Positions 9,578-57,392 of a stretch of 64,000 bases of DNA are shown piece by piece. The notes under the pieces are model-generated. The model did not search any database, was not told the DNA's origin, and saw nothing but the letters and a program-made list of their open reading frames with translations. Origin of the DNA: an uncultured Gammaproteobacteria bacterium. Its GTDB lineage: Bacteria; Patescibacteriota; Patescibacteriia; Magasanikbacterales; JBBTQS01. The position numbers and the translations under genes were made by a program. Position 1 is the first letter of the stretch. The number at the start of each line of letters is the position of its first letter. Location of the stretch: the NCBI GenBank assembly GCA_964627525.1, contig CAZVIA010000001.1, positions 8,007 through 72,006 of the forward strand, given 5' to 3'.

Positions 9578-10033
9578 ATGTCTGATTACATGCGAAAAAT
9601 TTTAGATTTAATTGGGCGAACAGGGGATAGATGTATAGTAGTTCACCCAGAGACAGAAGATGCTTATGTTGTGATGGCAATTGAGGATTATGAAATGTTG
9701 GCTGATGCTGCTTCTGATTTAGAGTGGGATGATGAAGCCGAAGGAGAAGAGGATTATGATGAGGAATGGGAATTTGGTGATGATGTTGAAGATCAGGTGG
9801 TTGATGAAGTAAAAGAAAATGGAAATAATGCTTTGGAAGAATGGCGAAAGCAAATGCAAGCTTTGGCAGCACAAGATACTGACTCTGAAGAACCATTTGA
9901 GATTGCACTTTCAAGTGTAAGGCAAGATGATGAAATTAAAGGAGAAATCAAAATTGAGGAAATTCCACAAGCAGAAGCTGAAAAAGTTGAGGGAAAAGAT
10001 GATGATAGGTTTTATATAGAACCTGTAGAATAA
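9578..10033 (+). CDS. Acidic hypothetical protein with a Phd/YefM-like N-terminal segment
   Basis: N-terminal RCIVVHPETEDAYVVMAIEDYEML resembles the Phd/YefM antitoxin core; the rest is a D/E-rich low-complexity tail. Confidence 0.35.
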   Translation: MSDYMRKILDLIGRTGDRCIVVHPETEDAYVVMAIEDYEMLADAASDLEWDDEAEGEEDYDEEWEFGDDVEDQVVDEVKENGNNALEEWRKQMQALAAQDTDSEEPFEIALSSVRQDDEIKGEIKIEEIPQAEAEKVEGKDDDRFYIEPVE

Positions 10034-10055: not shown

Positions 10056-10205
10056 GCACACAAATAAAAAATACTTCTAAAGGGCTCTGCGTAGGGTCGC
10101 CAGCATGGTGTCCGACCGTAGGTCGGACTGGTGACCACGAGCAAAGAGCGAATGCGCCGCAGGTGCGCGTGAGTGTCCCGATAGAAGTATTTTTTATTTG
10201 TGTGC
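10056..10205. repeat. Inverted-repeat element: 23-bp perfect IR (gcacacaaataaaaaatacttct / agaagtattttttatttgtgtgc) flanking a 104-bp GC-rich core
   Basis: IR arms at 10056-10078 and 10183-10205 are exact reverse complements. The core contains a perfect hairpin gtccgac-cgtag-gtcggac. Confidence 0.6.
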
Positions 10206-10310
10206 TTTTGTTTTTATTGACTAATTTATTAGTATTTGTTACTATGTATAGTCGTCTGTTGCTAATTAGTAAGTGGCGGGTGACATTAATTGGAAAAAGG
10301 AGAGTTTGCT

Positions 10311-11189
10311 GTGACAAGGAAATATCCTGTCTCCGGCGATCTTTACAAGAGAATTGATGCAAAAATGTCTGAGCTCAAGCGAATGCTCAGACAAAAGAAA
10401 GGGTGTATATTTGACCCTGCTGATCTTTTTGTTGCTTTGCAGTACTTGATTGATGGAAAGATCACAACACAGGATTTGATTGCAGTGTCTTTGAGAAAAG
10501 ACGAGCAAGCTCAACAACCTGCTGTGCGCATGGATAAGTTGTTCCTTTCTCCTGGGGAGCAGTGGTCCTTGTTTCTTGAGTACAATGAGAATCTACCTGA
10601 TGAGTTGAGATTCACCAAAGAAGAACTTTTGGCTTTTTGTATGGAAGGTGGTAATCCTAATCCACCTGAACTACCAGAAGACGCAAGTCCTCTCACGGTA
10701 GTCCAGCTCGTTCCTTATCAAGAAACAGTAGAAAAAACCATTGCGTTCTTGCTGGGTTTTGTTCAAAGCCAAATGGAAAAGCTCGGGCTGAACTACTACC
10801 AATGGGAAGGGTATAATGATCTTTTGACCAAAAAAGATGTAATCCGTCTTCTCCCAGGTATTGAACATCCAAGAAAGTGTCTTCGTTGGGAAATCGTAGA
10901 TCTTGGTGCAAATAGAGGAAAAAAGCCTTGTGATGTGCGAAATGAGAACAGTCCTCATGCAGCAGTACTAGCTGCAGCAGGATTTCACACCAACTGGTCA
11001 ACAAGCATGGATGGAGATAAAATCCCATACGTGTTTATGCCTGGGTATCAGGTTACTGTTCCAAGTGGTGATTCGTGGCAGTACGTGCCTCACATCTGGT
11101 TCCATCAGCACGATCGCAGGCTCAGGATCGGCTGCAGCTGGGATGGCTACTGCAACCAGGGTTGGGCTGTTGTGGTGGTTGCGATTTAG
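10311..11189 (+). CDS. Hypothetical protein (ORFan) on a GC-rich insert
   Basis: GTG start with AAGGAG 9 nt upstream (the ORF track used TTG at 10290). Higher GC and GC3 than neighbours. C-terminal Cys/Trp/His-rich motif; no recognisable domain. Confidence 0.5.
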   Translation: MTRKYPVSGDLYKRIDAKMSELKRMLRQKKGCIFDPADLFVALQYLIDGKITTQDLIAVSLRKDEQAQQPAVRMDKLFLSPGEQWSLFLEYNENLPDELRFTKEELLAFCMEGGNPNPPELPEDASPLTVVQLVPYQETVEKTIAFLLGFVQSQMEKLGLNYYQWEGYNDLLTKKDVIRLLPGIEHPRKCLRWEIVDLGANRGKKPCDVRNENSPHAAVLAAAGFHTNWSTSMDGDKIPYVFMPGYQVTVPSGDSWQYVPHIWFHQHDRRLRIGCSWDGYCNQGWAVVVVAI

Positions 11190-11355
11190 GGGAGTAATAT
11201 AGAACTTGAAGCTAGGAAACTAGCAACTTGGAAATCCTTGGTTCTTGTAACTTGAACCTTGGATTTCTTTTTTATATTTTGAACTTTGGGTTTTTAGAAT
11301 TTAAATATTGGTGCACCTTTAAAAAAATTATGTAAAAAGTTTTTCTAAAAATTTC

Positions 11356-11367
11356 CCTAAATTTAGC
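11356..11367. promoter_or_regulatory. Palindromic motif copy 2 (cCTAAATTTAGC, 11/12)
   Basis: TTTCCCTAAATTTAGCAAAAAAA, about 30 bp upstream of the tuf promoter. Confidence 0.4.
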
Positions 11368-11512: not shown

Positions 11513-12706
11513 ATGGCAGAAATGTTCGACAGAAGTAAACCACACGTTAACGTAGGTACAATTGGTCACGTTGACCATGGTAAAACAACCTTAACCGCTG
11601 CTATCTTAAAAGTGCTTGGTGCACAAGGAAAGATTGCACAGGATAAATCAGTAGATCAAATTGACGCTGCGCCTGAAGAGCGCCAGCGTGGTATTACAAT
11701 TGCTACAGCTCATGTTGAGTATGAAAGTGATGCACGTCACTACGCTCATGTTGACTGTCCAGGACACGCAGATTATGTAAAAAACATGATTACAGGTGCC
11801 GCGCAAATGGATGGAGCTATTTTAGTAGTTTCAGCAGCAGACGGTCCTATGCCTCAAACTCGTGAGCATATTTTGCTTGCACGTCAGGTTGGTGTACCGC
11901 ACATTGTTGTATTTTTAAACAAAGTTGATCAAGTTTCAGATCCAGAATTGCTTGACTTAGTAGAAGAGGAAGTAAGAGACTTGTTAAATAAGTATGAATT
12001 CCCAGGAGCTGATACACCAATTATTCGTGGTTCAGCTTTGAAAGCTCTTGAAAATCCAGGGGATGAAGCTCACGCAAAACCAATTACAGATTTACTTGAT
12101 GCTTTGGATTCATTTATTCCAACACCAGAACGTGATGTAGATAAACCATTTCTTATGCCAATTGAGGATGTTTTCTCAATTGAAGGGCGTGGTACAGTAG
12201 TTACTGGTCGTATTGAACGTGGAATTGTAAAAGTTGGTGAAGAAATTGCAATTATTGGAATGGGTGAGGAAGTAAACAAAACAACAGTTACTGGTGTAGA
12301 AATGTTTAATAAACAACTTGATCAAGGTCAAGCTGGAGACAATGCTGGTATTTTGTTGCGTGGTGTTAAAAAAGAAGATGTACAGCGTGGTCAGGTTTTG
12401 GCAGTTCCAGGATCTGTTACACCTCATACAGAGTTTGAAGCAGAAGTATATGCTTTAAGCAAAGAAGAGGGTGGACGTCACAAACCCTTTTTCAAAGGTT
12501 ACAAACCTCAGTTTTATATGCGTACAACTGATGTAACTGGAGAAGTAGAACTTCCAGAAGGAACAGAAATGGTTATGCCTGGTGACACTGCAAACTTGAA
12601 GATCAAATTGATCGTTCCAGTTGCTCTTGAAGAAAAGCAAAGATTTGCTATTCGTGAAGGTGGACGAACAGTTGGTGCAGGTGCAGTAACAAAAATTTTG
12701 AAATAA
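11513..12706 (+). CDS. tuf: Elongation factor Tu
   Basis: [10 protein letters not shown] and DCPGHADY motifs; 397 aa. Confidence 0.95.
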
Positions 12707-27330: not shown

Positions 27331-28716
27331 ATGCAAAGAATTTTATCTAAAAATACAGTACAAGAGGAAGGAAAAGAGGTCTTAATTCAAGGTTGGATCA
27401 ATGCTCGTAGAAATATGGGTAAAATTGTGTTTTTGGATTTACGCGATGCATCAGGGGTTTTGCAAGTGGTTTGTGTGCCTGCAGAATTAGATGAAGCATC
27501 ACAAAAAATATTAGATACTTTGCGTCCAGAATTTGTTGTGTCTATTAAGGGTCAAGTTCAAAAAAGAGGTGAAAAACAAATTAATAAGGACATGGTAACT
27601 GGCACTGTAGAGGTTTTGGCAAAATCAATTGAGATTTTGAACGAAGCAAAAACTTTGCCATTTGAAATTGATCGCGATACATCTGATATAAGTGAAGAAG
27701 TGCGAATGAAATATCGTTATTTAGATTTGCGTTCAGAACGTGTTACAAAAAATATTAAAATGCGAAGTGATTTTGTGAGGTATTGTCGCGAATATTTATT
27801 TGATCAGGATTTTACTGAAATTGAAACTCCTATTTTAACAAAATCAACACCAGAAGGATCTCGAGATTTTGTTGTGCCTTCGCGATTACAAAAAGGAAAA
27901 TATTTTGCGCTTCCACAATCACCACAACAGTACAAACAATTATTAATGACGGCTGGTTTTGAAAAATATTTCCAAATTGCACGGTGTTTAAGAGATGAGG
28001 ATCCGCGTGCAGATAGGGGATTTGAGCACACACAAGTTGATTTAGAAATGAGTTTTGTTGATCAGGAAGTTGTAATGCAAACAGCAGAAGAAATGATTAT
28101 TCATTCAGTTGAAAAACTTGGGTTGAAAATTAAAGAAAAACCATTTCCGCGCATTACACATAAAGAATCAATGGAAAAATATAAAGATGATAAGTTTGAT
28201 TTAAGAACTGAAGAAGAAAAAGAGCAAGGTGTGTTAGCTTATGCATGGGTTGTTGATTTTCCGTTTTTTAAAAAAGATGAAAAAGGCAGTGGTTGGACTT
28301 TTACACATAATCCATTTTCACAACCTAAAGATGAGTTTTTAAAAGATCATTTGGCTGGTAAAAATATTGAAAACATTTTAACCACTCAATATGATTTGAT
28401 TTGTAATGGAGTTGAATCAGCCGGAGGATCAATGCGTGCGCACAAGCCAGAGGTTTTAAAAGCTACATATAAAACAATGGGTTATTCTGATGAAGAAATT
28501 CAGGAGTCAATTGGACATATTTTAGAGGCTTTTGAATATGGTGCACCACCACATGGAGGAATTGCTGTAGGTGTTGAAAGAAATATTATGAATTTTGTTA
28601 ATGAAAAGTATATTAGAGAAGTGCAAGCATTTCCAATGTCTGGTTCTTCAAATACTTCTGTTATGGATGCGCCATCTGAACTTCCAAAAGATATTTTAAA
28701 GCAATATGGCTTATAA
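27331..28716 (+). CDS. aspS: Aspartyl-tRNA synthetase, bacterial-type core without the GAD insertion
   Basis: QSPQQYKQLLM and CLRDEDPRADR motifs; GGSMRAH; PHGGIAVGVER; only 461 aa. Confidence 0.85.
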   Translation: MQRILSKNTVQEEGKEVLIQGWINARRNMGKIVFLDLRDASGVLQVVCVPAELDEASQKILDTLRPEFVVSIKGQVQKRGEKQINKDMVTGTVEVLAKSIEILNEAKTLPFEIDRDTSDISEEVRMKYRYLDLRSERVTKNIKMRSDFVRYCREYLFDQDFTEIETPILTKSTPEGSRDFVVPSRLQKGKYFALPQSPQQYKQLLMTAGFEKYFQIARCLRDEDPRADRGFEHTQVDLEMSFVDQEVVMQTAEEMIIHSVEKLGLKIKEKPFPRITHKESMEKYKDDKFDLRTEEEKEQGVLAYAWVVDFPFFKKDEKGSGWTFTHNPFSQPKDEFLKDHLAGKNIENILTTQYDLICNGVESAGGSMRAHKPEVLKATYKTMGYSDEEIQESIGHILEAFEYGAPPHGGIAVGVERNIMNFVNEKYIREVQAFPMSGSSNTSVMDAPSELPKDILKQYGL

Positions 28717-29404
28717 AATTGAGCAAGAACAGTTTTCTGGTCCGCTTGATTTGTTACTTCACTTAATTGAAAGAGAGGAATTAGAAATTACTCAGGTTTC
28801 AATTTCAGATGTTGCAGATGAGTTTTTGCAGTATATGGATGAACATGAAAATATGCCAGCACAAGAATTGGCTGATTTTTTAGTGATTGCATCAAAGTTG
28901 TTATATCATAAGTCGCGTGCAATTTTGCCTTCTGTTTGGATGCAAGAAAATGTTGAAGAAGATGATTTAGAAAATCAGTTAAAAATGTACAAAGCTTTTG
29001 TTGATGCAAGCAAGCAGATTCAAGAAAAGATTTCTGAGAAAAAATTTATGTATTCGCGTGAGCAAATTATTTTAAAGCGTGAACAAGGTTTTTATCCACC
29101 TCAAAATGTTGATGAAGATGAATTGCAAAGTGCATTTGCGCGAGTTATAGAAAAATTAAAACCTTTAATAAAATTACCACAAGCTGCAATGAGGCGCGTG
29201 ATGTCTATCAAAGAAAAAATTAGTTTTATTAAAGATAGGATTGCACAAGTTGGTAAAGGAAAATTTAGAGATTTGGTTAGTAAGGATAAAAATAAAACAG
29301 ATGTGATTGTGAGTTTTTTGGCGATGTTAGAATTAGTTAAGCAAAAAGAATTAAAAGTTGAGCAAGAAGATTTGTTTGAAGAAATCAGTTTGGAAAAAGT
29401 TTAA
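28706..29404 (+). CDS. scpA: Segregation and condensation protein A
   Basis: FSGPLDLLLHLIEREELEITQVSISDV ScpA N-terminus. Confidence 0.85.
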   Translation: MAYKIEQEQFSGPLDLLLHLIEREELEITQVSISDVADEFLQYMDEHENMPAQELADFLVIASKLLYHKSRAILPSVWMQENVEEDDLENQLKMYKAFVDASKQIQEKISEKKFMYSREQIILKREQGFYPPQNVDEDELQSAFARVIEKLKPLIKLPQAAMRRVMSIKEKISFIKDRIAQVGKGKFRDLVSKDKNKTDVIVSFLAMLELVKQKELKVEQEDLFEEISLEKV

Positions 29405-29410
29405 TTTTTT

Positions 29411-29451
29411 AAAAAGAAAACACCCAAGGACTCGTTGTGAGTCGCTGGGTG
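29411..29451 (-). terminator. Terminator of the minus-strand small GC-rich gene
   Basis: Hairpin cacccaaggactc...gagtcgctgggtg followed on the minus strand by a T-run. Confidence 0.55.
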
Positions 29452-29501
29452 CTAGAAGGGTCATTGTGGATCCTCGGAGCTCGGGGGGCGGATATCGGCG
29501 G

Positions 29502-29798
29502 TTAGGCTGCTTCGTCGATTTGGAGCTGGAAGAGCTCTCGCTCTGCCATCTTGAATCGGAACAGTGCCGTTCCGGGAATGGTCGCTCCTTGGACACGCTC
29601 GATGATCGAACGTTCCGTAAGAATTTCCATTCCTTTATGGAACTCTTCCAGATCAGTACTCTGACCCACAGAACTAGGGACGAAATCCCTGTCTGTGTCG
29701 AGCTGCACTACGAAGCGCGGCTCGCCAAGGGACTGGGCAGTCCCTCGTGCCAAAATGAACAGATCGACAAGCAGGTTGCCTGCGAGCGGATTCAGCAT
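29502..29798 (-). CDS. Hypothetical small protein (98 aa) on a GC-rich insert between scpA and scpB
   Basis: GGAGGG SD 6 nt before the second ATG; own consensus promoter and terminator; GC and GC3 well above neighbours. Confidence 0.5.
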   Translation of the reverse strand: MLNPLAGNLLVDLFILARGTAQSLGEPRFVVQLDTDRDFVPSSVGQSTDLEEFHKGMEILTERSIIERVQGATIPGTALFRFKMAERELFQLQIDEAA

Positions 29799-29865
29799 GT
29801 TTCCCTCCATAGAAACTTAGCTGAGGTGATCGTCGTGCAACGGCCTTTCCACTGCAAAACAGAAT

Positions 29866-29895
29866 ACTATAGCATATTTTGATGATTTTGTCAAG
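29866..29895 (-). promoter_or_regulatory. Minus-strand promoter TTGACA-N18-TGC-TATAGT
   Basis: Reverse complement reads cttgacaaaatcatcaaaatatgctatagt. Confidence 0.6.
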
Positions 29896-29925
29896 TCTTA
29901 GGTTTACACATGTAAGATTTTTTGG

Positions 29926-29937
29926 CTAAATTTAGCG
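29926..29937. promoter_or_regulatory. Palindromic motif copy 3 (TTTTTTGGCTAAATTTAGCGAAAAA) between divergent promoters
   Basis: Perfect 12-bp palindrome. Confidence 0.5.
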
Positions 29938-29976
29938 AAAAATGCAAGTTTTTAAAAAATAAGATATAATACTAAC

Positions 29977-30528
29977 ATGTCAAAACAATCTGAAATAGAA
30001 TCAATATTATTTGTAAGTAGTGGAGCTTTGTCTATGACAAAAATAGTCAAGATTTTAGGATTGAAAAAACCTGAAGTAAAAGATTTAATTACAAAATTAA
30101 AAGAAAAATGGAACACTCCAGAATCTGGGGTTCAGTTAATAGAAAATGGAGAAGAAGTGCAATTAATGTCTAGTTCAGAAAATACAGAAGTTGTGCAAGC
30201 GTTTTTAAAAGATGAAACTTCTGGTGAATTAACAAAGCCCGCATTAGAAACACTTTCAATAATTGCGTATCGCCAGCCAATTACAAAACCAGAATTAGAA
30301 CAAATACGTGGAGTGAATTGCAGTTTGATTTTGCGTAATTTATTATTAAGAGGTTTGGTTGCAGAAAAAGAAGATTCAAAAAGACTTCAAACAGTTTATT
30401 GTGTTGCAATGGATTTTATAAAATTATTAGGATTGGAATCTGTTGAACAGTTGCCAGATTTTGAAAAATTAAGACAACATGAATATGTGGAGGATGTTGT
30501 TGCAGGTTTAAAAGAAAACAAAGAATGA
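29977..30528 (+). CDS. scpB: Segregation and condensation protein B
   Basis: IESILFVSSGALSMTKIV winged-helix ScpB. Confidence 0.85.
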   Translation: MSKQSEIESILFVSSGALSMTKIVKILGLKKPEVKDLITKLKEKWNTPESGVQLIENGEEVQLMSSSENTEVVQAFLKDETSGELTKPALETLSIIAYRQPITKPELEQIRGVNCSLILRNLLLRGLVAEKEDSKRLQTVYCVAMDFIKLLGLESVEQLPDFEKLRQHEYVEDVVAGLKENKE

Positions 30529-39985: not shown

Positions 39986-40014
39986 TTGACAAAATTGTCC
40001 AGGTGTGCTATATT
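39986..40014 (+). promoter_or_regulatory. Promoter TTGACA-N17-TGC-TATATT in the rel-topA intergenic region
   Basis: cttgacaaaattgtccaggtgtgctatatt. Confidence 0.5.
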
Positions 40015-40020
40015 GTAACT

Positions 40021-40079
40021 GGTGATGTTCGGGTAATACCGAATGCTAGGGGAAAGCCGCCGGGCTACGGCGGTTTTTT
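40021..40079 (+). ncRNA. Candidate ~60-nt small RNA
   Basis: Consensus promoter, two hairpins (ttcggg-taata-cccgaa; gccgcc-gggcta-cggcgg + T6). Confidence 0.3.
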
Positions 40080-40098
40080 CTTTGTTTAATTTTAGGAC

Positions 40099-40128
40099 TT
40101 GAAAAAATATTGCGGATTGTGCTAATAT
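40099..40128 (+). promoter_or_regulatory. Promoter TTGAAA-N18-TGC-TAATAT
   Basis: cttgaaaaaatattgcggattgtgctaatat. Confidence 0.4.
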
Positions 40129-40134
40129 ATATCC

Positions 40135-40251
40135 GTGGCACCCGAGAGGGCCTGAGCATCACCATTGGCCTGAGGTTACCTTGTTCGGGACCACATAAAA
40201 AAAACCTGTCTTTTTGTTAGTGCTTTTTAAGCGCAAGTTGACAGGATTTTT
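40135..40251 (+). ncRNA. Second candidate small RNA (~115 nt), ending in a bidirectional terminator shared with topA
   Basis: ggcctgag direct repeat; cctgtc...gacagg hairpin flanked by A- and T-runs. Confidence 0.25.
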
Positions 40252-40266
40252 TATTTATGTTATAAA

Positions 40267-49877: not shown

Positions 49878-49957
49878 ATTTTTTTATTTATTTAATTTTA
49901 TATTGCACAAACATCTTAACATTTTGTAAAAGTATGTGAAAGTAGGTCTGTTTTTTG

Positions 49958-49969
49958 GCTAAATTTAGC
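49958..49969. promoter_or_regulatory. Palindromic motif copy 4 (TTTTTTGGCTAAATTTAGCTATTTTTT)
   Basis: Perfect 12-bp palindrome 30 bp upstream of the island promoter. Confidence 0.5.
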
Positions 49970-49998: not shown

Positions 49999-50027
49999 TT
50001 GACAAAATTCATCAGATGTGCTATGAT
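49999..50027 (+). promoter_or_regulatory. Promoter TTGACA-N17-TGC-TATGAT driving the GC-rich island
   Basis: gcttgacaaaattcatcagatgtgctatgat. Confidence 0.65.
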
Positions 50028-50355
50028 ACTACGTTATCAAGTGATGACACTTACAATTTTCGAGGAGAGAGAAAAAGGGTTATGTTTTTATGTAGCCTAA
50101 TAAAAAGCGGTTTCTCCTCAAGTAATCCGCTTTTTGTTTGAAAAATCGGAATAAGGAAAGTGTAGAGGAGGGAATGTTTTACTAGGAAGGCTTATATTAC
50201 TAAAGTTTCGGCCTTAATCCCAGTGCAACTTCTTCTGCACCTTCCTTAGTCCGATTGGACATGGACTCTTGGGACCAAACAAGAGTTGTAAGTACGTTCG
50301 TTACTTTGGGTGTGCGTTGGTCCGCATGTCCAGAGAGTCAAAGGGGACTTTCAAA

Positions 50356-51774
50356 ATGTCGAGCCTTACCGCAGTAGTCGTGACCGAGCAGACCGACGAC
50401 ACCACCACCACGACCGAGGTGGAGGCCACCGTGGCCACCACCGACGTCGAGGTGATGCAGAACGACCAGGGGCTCGAGGCGCAAGACGCGTCCGAGCCGA
50501 CCTTCGGCCAGAAGGTCGAAGGGCTCTGCGCGCAGATCGACCCCGAGCTGGAGTGCTCGGGAGAGGGTTGCGAGCGTAGCCGTCGAGACGGCTACGTAGG
50601 AACGTTCCTGTTCCCGCCGGTCGCCCGCATGGGTGACATCCTCAGTCAACTGGCTGAGGAGGATGGTGGGGGGCGCCAGCGCGTGGAGGTCGGAGTGACC
50701 GACATCAGCGAGTTCGCACGGTGTCGTTCCTGCGCCACGCAGGAGCACAACCAGGAACTCGACCGCATCGTCGGAGGCATCCTCTCGCGTCAGGCCAAAA
50801 AGGCTCGTTCGGAAGAGCTCAGGGTGGCACTCAAGGACGAACTCGGGTTCGTCGAGTGCACGCACGAGGATTGCGGCTGCCTGATCTACGTCGAGGAGCC
50901 CTCGCGGAACGTTTTGGTGGCCACTTTCGGCAACCAGATCCCGCGGCGGTTGTACCCGGCGTTCGTGCCGAGTCTCGCCTCTCTCCGTGAGGAGTTGGAG
51001 CGCGACGCGACGGTCGAGGATCTCGTTTCCCGCGCACGATGCGCAGGTCACGCGGACACCTTGGCAAAGGGGTCGAGCAAGTGGCACAAGGCCAGCTCGA
51101 CCTTGGGGTTGATGCGTCAGGAGCTCGCGGATCGCGAGTGGCGCAACAACATCAACGGTTTGCTGCGCGGTGCCGGGGCGGAGCTGTGCTCGTGTTGTGG
51201 CGACCGGGCAGTCTTCCCCCACCAGGACGAGATGGTCAGTCACGAGCAGGCCGTTCGGATCTTCGGTTGTGAGGGCGACGTGCCCCAGCAGTCGGACCTC
51301 GTCGGGTACTGTTTGCCCGTCGAGTGGTTCGAACGACAGGGTGTGGTGATCCTGTCCGAGCGCGACCTCTTCTCGCACATGATGTGCAAGAAGTGCGCTA
51401 TCCAGTCCGGTAAGGAATACCGGTCCGGGCTCGAGCAGCGCGAGGCTGAGGGTGACTGGGAGAACGTGAAGGCCAGGGACATCAACGGTCCAATGTTCTT
51501 CAAGTTCACGGCAACGTGGAACCGGCTGGAGCGCGAGTTGCGCGGCAGCCGGGGAAGCGACCAGGGCTCGAGTTCGGGCTTGACTCGCGAGCAGCGTCAC
51601 CAGACCGGCGGTGCCTTCGGTAACGCGGCGAACATGGGTTCGTCGAGCTACCGCAAGGACAAGTCCGAGAAGCGGAGTGCGGACAAGGAGTTCCGTGACC
51701 TGCAGAAGGGCGACGAGACTGGCCGTACGGGTCGGTCGAAGGAGCAGAAGAATGGGGGTAAGAAGGACAAGTAG
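50356..51774 (+). CDS. High-GC Cys-rich hypothetical protein (ORFan; multiple CxxC-like knuckles, Thr-rich N-terminus, disordered basic C-terminus)
   Basis: GC3-biased codons on the + strand and an AAGGGGA SD before the ATG at 50356. The antisense 420-aa ORF is a typical high-GC shadow. The ORF-track start at 50269 lies in lower-GC sequence. Confidence 0.6.
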   Translation: MSSLTAVVVTEQTDDTTTTTEVEATVATTDVEVMQNDQGLEAQDASEPTFGQKVEGLCAQIDPELECSGEGCERSRRDGYVGTFLFPPVARMGDILSQLAEEDGGGRQRVEVGVTDISEFARCRSCATQEHNQELDRIVGGILSRQAKKARSEELRVALKDELGFVECTHEDCGCLIYVEEPSRNVLVATFGNQIPRRLYPAFVPSLASLREELERDATVEDLVSRARCAGHADTLAKGSSKWHKASSTLGLMRQELADREWRNNINGLLRGAGAELCSCCGDRAVFPHQDEMVSHEQAVRIFGCEGDVPQQSDLVGYCLPVEWFERQGVVILSERDLFSHMMCKKCAIQSGKEYRSGLEQREAEGDWENVKARDINGPMFFKFTATWNRLERELRGSRGSDQGSSSGLTREQRHQTGGAFGNAANMGSSSYRKDKSEKRSADKEFRDLQKGDETGRTGRSKEQKNGGKKDK

Positions 51775-52511
51775 TCCTTCTCTTGCCTAGCACGAAGCTA
51801 GGTATCCGCGCTCTCTGCTCATAATCCCACACGCTCAAGGTTTGAACACCTAGTGTGGTCCACATCCAGTTCTTGGATGTGAAGGTGAAGTGATATGTTA
51901 CATACCCCAAATATTACATATCATTTCACAGCAGATCTGTTCTAGGTCTGCGACAACGTGGATGGGGTGTACGATTAACGCGTATACCCCTGTCCCATTC
52001 TGTAGTGTATTAGGGAATTGGAGGAAAAAACACTCCAAAAGTTTGCCCAAGGGATACACTGTAGATAGGACAAGGTCCAGATTCTTGCGCTAACGACGAA
52101 AACGCGCCTGAACAAGAGGCCACTAGCACATACAAAATAAGGGAGGGAGATTACAGTCGTGCTTGCACGATTACTCAAACCGGATTAGGTATGTTGCTGA
52201 CAGTAGCATCCTCATCCCGATCTAGGGAAAGAGGAAGCATGTCACACACGAAAGCGCCGGCGGACTCTTCCGTCGTCAATAGACCGTTCAAAGTCCTACG
52301 GGGCCGCGACGGAACACAAGGTAAATACCTAGGGGAGACGAGAGTTTGAACTTTGAAGAACCCTGACTATAACGTTTAGTCAGTTAGTAGCCAATGCAGA
52401 GAACCATCCTCCCAAACCCCCAGCAAGGCAAGTGCACTTTATATCCCCCAACTCTCTCCTTGTCTTGCTAGGGGTGTACAGAACCCGTTATTAATTTAGC
52501 GGGTTTTGTGT
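51775..52511 (+). other. ~730-nt ORF-free, mid-GC structured region ending in a rho-independent terminator; candidate long ncRNA, 3' UTR or decayed gene
   Basis: No ORF over 70 aa on either strand. Many local hairpins (cctagc-acgaa-gctagg; cacatcca-gttct-tggatgtg; ttccgtcg...cgacggaa). Ends aacccg-ttattaatttag-cgggtt + T-run. Confidence 0.4.
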
Positions 52512-52541
52512 TTTTAAAAAATCCCACGAAATTATATATAA

Positions 52542-55232: not shown

Positions 55233-55399
55233 ATAAAAAATAATCCTACCGAGGTAAGGGTTCTTTACTTGACTAAGCGAAGCAACAAGCCCTAATGCTT
55301 GGCATTGGGGTGCGCCAGAGCAACCTAAACTTGACAAACTTCTTTAAATAAATTAAACTACCAAACGTTGCGCCGGCCTGAAAAAAGAGGAGGGTTTAC

Positions 55400-55711
55400 T
55401 TGGCACAGCAAACCTCAATAGTTCGTTGTCAGTGTTGTAACTACACTGGCCCTGGTTCCCATTTCCAAACACCACCGATCACCTCGATCGTTGGTAGTAG
55501 GAAGAGTGGTCTTTCCAGAGAAGATGTGCACAACAATGCGTTTTGCCGTCGGCATCTTGGTGAGATCGTGGGTGAACCAGTTGATTTCATGGCAGCTCTT
55601 CGCAAAGTGACTAGGGGATCACGTCGGGGAGTTCGCAGAGATCGTGTTTCTGATACAAGGGTGCGTCACGGTGGCAACCGTCGTCGTAGCCGAGGTGCTT
55701 TGCATCCGTAG
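55400..55711 (+). CDS. Small basic Cys/His-containing hypothetical protein (TTG start) on a GC-rich islet
   Basis: AAGAGGAGGG SD 8 nt upstream of TTG; Arg-rich C-terminus; CQCC...C...H; GC above local background. Confidence 0.45.
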   Translation: MAQQTSIVRCQCCNYTGPGSHFQTPPITSIVGSRKSGLSREDVHNNAFCRRHLGEIVGEPVDFMAALRKVTRGSRRGVRRDRVSDTRVRHGGNRRRSRGALHP

Positions 55712-55870
55712 GACATTGGTGGTGTGGTGGAGGATATGGTGGTTCTGAATTAGAACTGGATTCCCAACACCCTAACACCACAACCGAACAACAAGAAAGT
55801 GTTTTGGATAAGTCGAGCCTATATTATACTCGCAGCCCCAGAACGCTTTTTCTTTTTATTTGATTTTTGT

Positions 55871-56677: not shown

Positions 56678-56706
56678 TTGACAATAAAAGCTGTATGTGC
56701 TATGTT
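56678..56706 (+). promoter_or_regulatory. Promoter TTGACA-N17-TGC-TATGTT
   Basis: ccttgacaataaaagctgtatgtgctatgtt. Confidence 0.55.
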
Positions 56707-56757
56707 TATATATCAACGATCACCACTATAGGGTCAGAAGACCCAAAGGAGTGCATC

Positions 56758-57258
56758 ATGGTGAGTCAGAGATTGATAAATAATCCTGGGGTTTGTATGG
56801 CAAGTCAGCTGTACTTTCTAGGGATTTGTCTAAAATCAGTGCTAATAGGCACTGTTAATGGCTCGCGTCATGCTGATGCCATGCGGATGCGGATGCAAAT
56901 TGCATTTGTTTACCAGCAGGCAGAAAAAGGCGGAGTCCTAACGAGAAAAATCAAGAATTTGTTGTTGAGAGTAGGTAATTTTCTTGGTGATTCTACATTG
57001 TGGGATAGAAAAGATTTGGTTCACGGACTTGCTGGTCAGTTGAATTTGGCTGCAAATCATTTTTTTCCCGAAGAGCTGGATGAACATCTGGAGCCCCTCT
57101 CAACAGAAATTGTTGTGGAGAGTGAGGTTGAGCCTGAGTTTCCTCGGCCACCGACTCCGATGTACAAGGAGGTAGAGCCTGCTAGGTCTGCATCTCCTCC
57201 AGCTAGTGCCCTTAATCTGATCAGAGAAACGATCGTTGGTGCAAGAGCAGTATCTTGA
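56758..57258 (+). CDS. Hypothetical protein (ORFan, ~166 aa) with a Pro/Glu-rich C-terminus
   Basis: AAGGAG SD 7 nt before the ATG at 56758 (the ORF-track start at 56695 lacks an SD); followed by a double hairpin terminator. Confidence 0.45.
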   Translation: MVSQRLINNPGVCMASQLYFLGICLKSVLIGTVNGSRHADAMRMRMQIAFVYQQAEKGGVLTRKIKNLLLRVGNFLGDSTLWDRKDLVHGLAGQLNLAANHFFPEELDEHLEPLSTEIVVESEVEPEFPRPPTPMYKEVEPARSASPPASALNLIRETIVGARAVS

Positions 57259-57332
57259 TTTACAACTACAAAGAGAAACAAGCATCTTACAGTGAGTATT
57301 TGATAACGACACCGTTGATGCTTGAAAATAGT

Positions 57333-57392
57333 CCCACAGGACAACAATTCTGTGGGGCTTTTCTATTTTTTCCCAAAAAAATAGAAAAGCCC
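57333..57392 (+). terminator. Tandem hairpin terminator
   Basis: cccacag-gacaacaattc-ctgtggg, then a 17-bp perfect IR gggcttttctatttttt/aaaaaatagaaaagccc. Confidence 0.55.

Follow-up and report, generated by a model that had tools for sequence, protein, structure and literature searches.

In the 64,000-nucleotide stretch of Patescibacteria DNA analysed here (the window; 36.2% GC overall), the genes for the kleisin ScpA and the kite subunit ScpB of SMC-ScpAB are both intact, scpA is similar in length to that of relatives, and the two are separated by a gap of 572 bp (29405-29976). The preliminary description of this locus had stated that scpA and scpB are normally adjacent or overlapping. This proved correct: 80 ScpB loci from GTDB species representatives were surveyed, and in the roughly 70 Patescibacteria loci that also have scpA upstream, the gap is nearly always between -23 and +30 nucleotides (nt). 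The comparison supports the view that the 572-bp gap is an insertion relative to most relatives. Its GC content, said to be above background, is 50-53.5% in 200-nt windows over 29400-29899 (55% in the 431-bp core of the insert), against about 30-35% in the flanks. The insert carries a unit on the minus strand with an open reading frame (ORF) for a small orphan protein of 98 amino acids (aa), and this unit is the subject of the present analysis (Table 1).

In other Patescibacteria, three loci (L011, L033 and L044) hold a plus-strand maf-like gene of about 570 nt between scpA and scpB, a fourth (L038) holds another, unrelated plus-strand ORF, and in the gaps of L015, L017, L051 and L076 there are palindromic repeats, short and GC-rich, of the form TGTCATCCCGAG...TCGGGATGACA. 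Insertions are repeatedly tolerated at the scpA-scpB junction in Patescibacteria.

The scpA-scpB junction and its minus-strand unit

The 98-aa ORF, its GGAGGG Shine-Dalgarno (SD) sequence, a consensus promoter and a hairpin terminator were all found, none of them more than 1 nt from where the preliminary description had placed them. The promoter is the best site in the region in a promoter scan, and promoters of its type recur at 39986 and 49999. The start of transcription was placed from the position of the -10 box. An upstream in-frame ATG at 29810 would lengthen the ORF to 102 aa (29810-29502); since the upstream ATG is out of frame in a related species (L086, see below), the start at 29798 is favoured. 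The terminator hairpin has arms at 29421-29433 and 29439-29451 (13-nt stem, 85% complementary, 5-nt loop), and folds on the minus strand at -20.4 kcal/mol (z score, z, of -4.75); with the run that follows the hairpin, the terminator ends 2 nt from the scpA stop codon. A simple terminator scan missed it because of one mismatch in the stem. On the plus-strand side of the hairpin, there is no U-tract downstream. Promoter, SD and terminator share the minus strand, and the transcriptional autonomy that had been ascribed to the insert stands: it is its own transcription unit. In its predicted form, transcription would start at a strong promoter of the sigma-70 type, run through some 60 nt of leader and the 98-aa ORF with its SD, and end at an intrinsic terminator directly beside the scpA stop codon. 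Since the small gene is convergent with scpA and its terminator appears unidirectional, read-through from scpA would be antisense to the small gene.

The gene downstream is likely to be served by a promoter of its own. In eight of eight close relatives compared (the window, L001, L002, L086, L089, L090, L091 and L094), the scpB ATG is preceded, at a distance of 6-14 nt, by a GGTATACT or GGTATAAT box, whether or not an insert is present, and thus also in relatives in which scpA and scpB are only 15-35 nt apart. This conserved spacing suggests that scpB has its own promoter, with the -35 region inside scpA in the insert-free relatives, and that its mRNA is leaderless or nearly so. Expression of scpB in the window would then probably start from this conserved -10 box, and the insertion would have landed between the scpA stop codon and a pre-existing scpB -10 box.

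Table 1. Features of the scpA-scpB junction and related elements (window coordinates unless a locus is named)
Feature	Position	Strand	Details
scpA (kleisin of SMC-ScpAB)	28706-29404	+	232 aa, intact; PF02616, E 1.9e-19
Plus-strand ORF	29358-29882	+	174 aa; TTG start inside scpA
Intrinsic terminator	29406-29451	-	hairpin 29421-29451, then UUUUCUUUUU(AAAAA) down to 29406
3' untranslated stretch	29452-29501	-	GC-rich; between stop codon and terminator; read from sequence
Orphan small-protein ORF	29502-29798	-	98 aa, MLNPLAGN...IDEAA; stop TAA 29504-29502
5' leader	29799-29859	-	about 60 nt; two hairpins; fold -22.4 kcal/mol, z -2.1
SD-like GGAGGG	29803-29808	-	4 nt upstream of ATG 29798; in loop of a small hairpin (predicted fold)
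Promoter	29866-29894	-	TTGACA (29894-29889), 17-nt spacer, TG-extended TATAGT (29871-29866); 11 of 12 positions match
Palindrome GGCTAAATTTAGC	29924-29937		T and A runs alongside; about 30 nt upstream of the small gene's -35 box
Putative scpB -10 box	29965-29970	+	TATAAT; 6 nt 5' of the scpB ATG
scpB (kite subunit)	29977-30528	+	183 aa, intact; PF04079, E 1.2e-41
Orthologue ORF, L086	L086:2573-2355	minus, relative to scpA/scpB	72 aa
Orthologue ORF, L091	L091:3849-3556	minus, relative to scpA/scpB	97 aa
GC-elevated orphan ORF	55400-55711		within 55330-55860
GC-elevated orphan ORF	56758-57258		within 56680-57370
GC-elevated orphan ORF	about 10312-11189		within 10230-11190

Two side observations concern other assemblies of this region. 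In a second population (L085; ENA ERZ23499038), a C-to-T change in the terminator stem, at position ~72 of the locus (window ~29430), is the sole difference from the window over a compared stretch of 631 nt that takes in the whole insert; it keeps a G-U pair on the plus-strand RNA and gives a C-A mismatch on the minus-strand RNA. Additionally, two independent Logan assemblies of the same species (L083 and L084) share a break at window position 29340, which falls inside the 3' end of scpA, some 65 nt short of the insert. Strain heterogeneity is one possible cause; difficulties of coverage or structure at the GC island are another.

Related loci and the history of the insert

If the insert were a recent foreign acquisition, as the preliminary description implied, then the same unit would not be expected at the same place in other species. 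Orthologous loci were found through the contigs of the closest ScpB homologues, and two related species do carry it. In the first (L086-L088; GCA_964554065.1; ScpB 68% identical to that of the window) the scpA-scpB gap is 533 nt, and in the second (L091-L093; ScpB 65% identical) it is 489 nt; both inserts have the position and orientation of the window insert. The promoter of L086-L088 is 87% identical to that of the window over 45 nt, and the L091 promoter is similar (TTGACAAAA-type). Leader hairpins are also present in the L086 and L091 loci, as are terminator hairpins adjoining the scpA stop codon (-22.3 and -21.4 kcal/mol, respectively). At the place equivalent to the window SD, GGAG is found within GGAGAGA (L086) and AGGAG (L091), some 8-11 nt upstream of the ATG. 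In the window, L086 and L091, the distance from the -35 box to the SD-ATG with which the minus-strand ORF (98, 72 and 97 aa, respectively) begins is 91-116 nt.

The proteins encoded at these loci have diverged much further than their neighbours, with about 20% identity where ScpA and ScpB together keep 65%. In shuffle tests, homology between the L091 and L086 proteins is clear (z ~7, p < 0.001), and their C-terminal 28 residues are 39% identical. The similarity of the window protein to that of L086, its sister in the tree, is only marginal, the two aligning collinearly and over the full length (z 2.6-3.4, p 0.007-0.019). At the nucleotide level, compared between the window and L086-L088, the match within the insert is limited to the promoter, and inserts of different species are too diverged for codon-level alignment. 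Within species, by contrast, variation is nearly absent: other contigs of the window species are 99.8-100% identical, and their copies of the insert are identical but for the L085 substitution; the gaps of L091-L093 are identical, and the L086-L088 inserts have no differences. Such near-identical copies carry no information on selection.

In a neighbour-joining tree of ScpA and ScpB, the window falls in the clade {window, L086, (L091, (L089, L090))}, with L094, L001 and L002 outside. The insert is present in three of the five clade members (window, L086 and L091), and is absent from the sister pair L089/L090, which have 35-nt gaps, and from the outgroups. This distribution suggests that one gain and one loss are the most parsimonious history, and most likely a single insertion took place in the ancestor of the subclade and was later followed by one loss. 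Because the insert is common to species whose ScpA and ScpB are only 61-65% identical, it is old relative to them, and not a recent acquisition by this genome. No integrase, transposase or other mobility gene was found in or beside the insert, nor any terminal inverted repeats, its sole inverted repeats being the terminator and a short palindrome. In searches of phage records, viral contigs and metagenome contigs, the small ORF was confined to the scpA-scpB locus. The implied recent origin thus finds no support in the related loci and the tree, which fits an old gain, and it is further weakened by the lack of mobility genes, inverted repeats and a target duplication. The opposite possibility considered at the outset, a native gene conserved at this position in all relatives and of normal GC, does not describe the locus either: the gene occurs in a small clade only, and its GC content at third codon positions (GC3) is 0.2-0.4 above that of native genes.

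Coding capacity, RNA structure and composition

A protein-coding function is supported by codon-level signals in all three lineages. GC by codon position is 0.66/0.37/0.59 in the window ORF, and the statistic (GC1+GC3)/2-GC2, in which the numbers denote codon positions, is 0.25, 0.28 and 0.23 in the three ORFs against a null of about 0.02 +/- 0.065; in each of them, none of 300 shuffles reaches the observed three-base periodicity. The frequency of G at the first position exceeds that of C (in the window, G1 0.37 vs C1 0.30), and T is the commonest base at the second (T2; 0.36 in the window), in all three ORFs, which assigns the coding sense to the minus strand. In contrast, folding is strong in the window only. 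Against dinucleotide shuffles, the minus strand has a z of -6.06, for the predicted transcript and the ORF segment alike, while the plus strand has -4.0 and -4.6; the L086 and L091 orthologues are weaker (-1.2 and -1.6). Against synonymous-codon shuffles, the window ORF has a z of -5.8 (0 of 150 shuffles), scpB -0.3, and the two orthologues -2.2 and -1.4. Since the SD, ATG, ORF and codon periodicity are kept in three lineages and the structure is not, a protein-coding gene is favoured over a pure non-coding RNA (ncRNA).

The composition of the gene is unusual for its genome. GC3 is 0.59 in the window, 0.67 in L086 and 0.80 in L091, against native values of about 0.2, 0.35 and 0.6, and the product of the window ORF is poor in lysine and rich in arginine, unlike host proteins. 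Among the native genes of the window (54 long ORFs across 1616-59889, with GC3 0.09-0.28), just two have an SD-like motif (GGAG, GAGG or AGGA at -22 to -4), and native start codons are preceded by A/T-rich sequence. This low frequency agrees with reports that many Parcubacteria are without the anti-SD motif (PMC9297842); the window does not include the 16S rRNA. The high GC3, the SD and the excess of mRNA structure over what the protein requires together suggest that the mRNA itself is under selection, perhaps for its stability or for control of its translation, or that genes of this class have a special expression regime.

As to the protein, an AlphaFold2 model of the L091 orthologue (P0122), built from the three-sequence alignment, has a predicted local distance difference test score (pLDDT) of 68 and a predicted template modelling score (pTM) of 0.56. 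Its order of helices (H) and strands (E), H-E-H-H-E-E(-H), is the canonical winged-helix topology, and its top Foldseek matches are winged-helix proteins, JetB included, none of them significant. A single-domain winged helix is the best available guess for the small protein, and a tentative one that is somewhat more probably wrong than right; if it holds, then the protein most likely binds nucleic acid or another protein. Derivation from the winged-helix domains of ScpA or ScpB was considered and not upheld, hhalign of the three-sequence profile giving E 0.78 (ScpA) and 0.21 (ScpB). A link between the small protein and SMC-ScpAB is speculation, prompted solely by gene position and the JetB match.

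Overall, the insert probably harbours a genuine minus-strand gene for a small protein, lineage-restricted and vertically inherited, that belongs to a very fast-evolving orphan family so far seen solely at scpA-scpB in three species of one Magasanikbacteria-like subclade. Several observations weigh against this interpretation. The proteins of the window and L091 have no significant similarity in shuffle tests. When the GC core is shuffled with dinucleotides preserved, 15% of the shuffles contain an ORF of at least 98 aa, or 6% when only ATG starts count, so ORF length is no evidence for coding, and the strong folding of the sense strand (z about -6) is what a structured ncRNA would show. The GC3, still 0.2-0.4 above native after long residence, also tells against it. 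Homology searches with the 98-aa protein found no homologue beyond the query: the query alone came back from 5.8 billion proteins in a word-indexed search and from 1.84 billion representatives in a full phmmer search, the window ORF had no match in PHROGs or PADLOC, and phage tblastn and scans of viral and metagenome contigs gave nothing. Likewise, a three-sequence profile recovered only its own three members, Pfam had no match at E <= 10 for any of the three proteins, and PDB sequences, searched with P0122 only, had no match with E < 0.7. With relatives known only from the two positional loci and no homologue outside the three, neither a test of the ratio of nonsynonymous to synonymous substitution rates (dN/dS) nor a deep alignment is possible. 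Finally, the window protein itself is poorly modelled (single-sequence AlphaFold pLDDT 48, with the same order of secondary structure predicted), and its own model matches only generic alpha/beta folds and no winged helices; since its similarity to the L091 protein is not significant, the winged-helix assignment reaches it only through the L086 link at p ~0.01.

Some of these points are also those that would be expected of a structured ncRNA of about 445 nt, running from promoter to terminator on the minus strand, in which the ORF is incidental or, in a dual-function transcript, RNA structure is the main selected feature. A GC island in an AT-rich genome is the classic signature of structured RNA and the basis of searches of GC-rich intergenic regions (GC-IGR; PMC6429828). 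The fold is stronger on the minus than on the plus strand and exceeds that of synonymous shuffles, the length of the ORF is not significant, no protein homologue is found and the window protein models poorly, and the promoter is of a strong type also present upstream of a gene at 11513. Nevertheless, this alternative appears unlikely. Neither at gathering thresholds nor at E <= 1 does Rfam match anything at 29000-30400 or window-wide, and no transfer RNA or transfer-messenger RNA was detected at the locus by ARAGORN. Additionally, the three-base periodicity with G1 above C1, and the SD and ATG at an equivalent place, are kept in all three lineages whereas the excess structure is not conserved in the orthologues, and similarity among the three loci is detectable in the protein while the nucleotide match between the window and L086 is confined to the promoter.

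The junction could instead be a hot spot, at which a conserved promoter-terminator socket repeatedly takes up foreign GC-rich cargo, and the window ORF would then be recent and unrelated to those of L086 and L091. Its high GC3, its lysine-poor and arginine-rich product, its SD where host genes are without one, the lack of significant similarity between the window and L091 proteins, and the maf-like gene, unrelated ORF and palindromic repeats at other Patescibacteria junctions would all be in line with this idea. However, the window and L086 proteins are collinear at p 0.007-0.019 in sister lineages, and the GC3 of the ORF tracks that of its host across the three species with a constant positive offset, which resembles co-evolution with the host and not fresh import. 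Nor does the insert have mobility genes, inverted repeats or a target duplication, and no donor-like sequence was found among 15 billion proteins, phages and viral contigs. We consider a hot spot decidedly unlikely. It is extremely improbable that the plus-strand ORF is the gene, expressed by read-through from scpA: although it is the longer ORF, shares the same GC2-low register (0.51/0.40/0.58) and is probably not preceded by termination of scpA transcription, it starts with a TTG inside scpA, has neither SD nor promoter (as had been described), encodes a product rich in Cys, Arg and His, and has equivalents in L086 and L091 that differ in extent and frame, and the base composition, promoter, SD and terminator all point to the minus strand. 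The minus-strand small ORF is thus supported as the gene.

Shared motifs, other GC-rich orphans and wider meaning

Sequence motifs around the small gene recur elsewhere in the window. The palindrome that the preliminary description had placed between the small gene's promoter and scpB is indeed there, and in the form (T)nGGCTAAATTTAGC(A)n it occurs at four window sites (2405-2417, 11355-11367, 29924-29936 and 49957-49969), with 8 two-strand matches in the window vs 2 expected. At three of the four, a near-consensus promoter follows, its -35 box about 25-45 nt downstream of the palindrome, and these promoters precede a 397-aa gene at 11513, the scpA-scpB small gene and a large GC-rich ORF at 50356; the fourth, at 2405, is about 75 nt upstream of a gene at 2493, and no clear promoter was identified there. 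A similar palindrome, GCTAAATTTAAAC, is present in L086. The palindrome resembles an upstream site, of activator or UP-like kind, that a conserved factor would recognise. A role as the small protein's own operator is unlikely, because unrelated promoters, that of the 11513 gene among them, have the palindrome upstream too, and because it is kept between the window and L086 though their proteins are only about 20% identical. A second motif, TTTTTAAAAA, is found at both ends of the insert. It was considered as a target-site duplication and rejected, being a common intergenic motif: the window has 13 copies vs 3 expected, at 29406, 29949, 49973, 52511 and nine further sites, so that both GC-rich units, the insert and the one at 49999 described below, are flanked. 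Many copies are at gene ends, adjoining terminator T-runs, and our reading of TTTTTAAAAA is a terminator T-tract plus an A-tract.

The small gene is not the only GC-rich orphan in the window. Clear SD-like motifs precede the GC-elevated orphan ORFs at 55400, 56758 and 10312, and a weaker one the ORF at 50356. Each of the first three has a strong TTGACA-type promoter (SDs GAGGAGGG, AGGAG and AAGGAG), and none matches a Pfam family. For 55400-55711 and 56758-57258, the synonymous-shuffle z is -4.3 and -2.9, respectively, which is the range seen in the other GC-rich orphans. A larger GC-rich transcription unit of about 2.5 kb (49999-52520; 50-69% GC) has a promoter nearly identical to the one before the small gene and a leader of some 330 nt, followed by a Cys-rich orphan ORF of 472 aa (50356-51774) from a protein cluster with two members, by roughly 700 nt that are GC-rich and non-coding (51775-52480), and by a terminator. 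The 472-aa ORF has no Pfam or phage match, and Rfam finds nothing in the unit. At 39986-40260, there are tandem strong promoters, TTGACAAAAT...TGTGCTATATT and TTGAAAAAAT...TGTGCTAATAT, after each of which come a short GC-rich segment able to form a hairpin and a T-run; these segments are candidate small RNAs, for which Rfam gives a single chance-level match (E 0.98). Lastly, the interval from a gene end at 10033 to the next promoter contains, at 10060-10205, a GC-rich core of roughly 100 nt inside an AT-rich inverted repeat of about 18 nt (AAATAAAAAATACTTCTA ... TAGAAGTATTTTTTATTT), which could be an element like a miniature inverted-repeat transposable element (MITE) or a small structured RNA.

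Comparison with known systems places the small-gene family as a new protein family and a familiar kind of thing. Like bacterial ORFan small-protein genes, it encodes short proteins (72-98 aa), has homologues confined to a narrow clade, evolves much faster than its neighbours and forms an independent intergenic transcription unit. Bacterial ORFans are said, on the authority of Daubin and Ochman in 2004, to be usually AT-richer than their genome. In contrast, the window gene is 18-20 points GC-richer, with GC3 0.2-0.4 above native in three lineages, and has an SD in a nearly SD-free genome and a strong excess of mRNA structure. Through the predicted fold, a further comparison class is that of single-domain winged-helix (wHTH) proteins, including the SMC kite subunits ScpB, MukE and JetB. 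The structured RNAs of AT-rich bacteria found in GC-IGR surveys (PMC6429828) resemble the unit in being long GC-rich islands between genes, with a strong promoter, a terminator and a strongly negative fold z, but the window unit has a conserved, periodic, SD-led ORF, its structure is not conserved in the orthologues and it has no Rfam family. It is conceivable, if quite improbable, that the GC-rich, SD-led, structured and fast-evolving orphans with the strongest native promoter type form a distinct class under a separate translation or stability regime, for instance genes of host interaction or conflict, of which the scpA-scpB copy would possibly be a winged-helix, kite-like accessory or modulator of SMC-ScpAB.

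The locus offers a clean natural case of a small orphan gene inserted in a normally tight scpA-scpB pair and kept there for long. Its protein has diverged almost beyond recognition while promoter and terminator stay, and the case is usable for the study of orphan-gene evolution in Patescibacteria. It also poses a compositional puzzle: the gene has retained its high GC3, its SD and its surplus of mRNA structure in a genome that is AT-rich and nearly SD-free, and several other orphans of the window are like it. If the small protein were a winged-helix partner of ScpAB, then it would bear on condensin regulation in bacteria with minimal genomes. Similarly, if the GC-rich orphans were a distinct class, a fast-evolving gene set would have a regime of translation or stability to itself.

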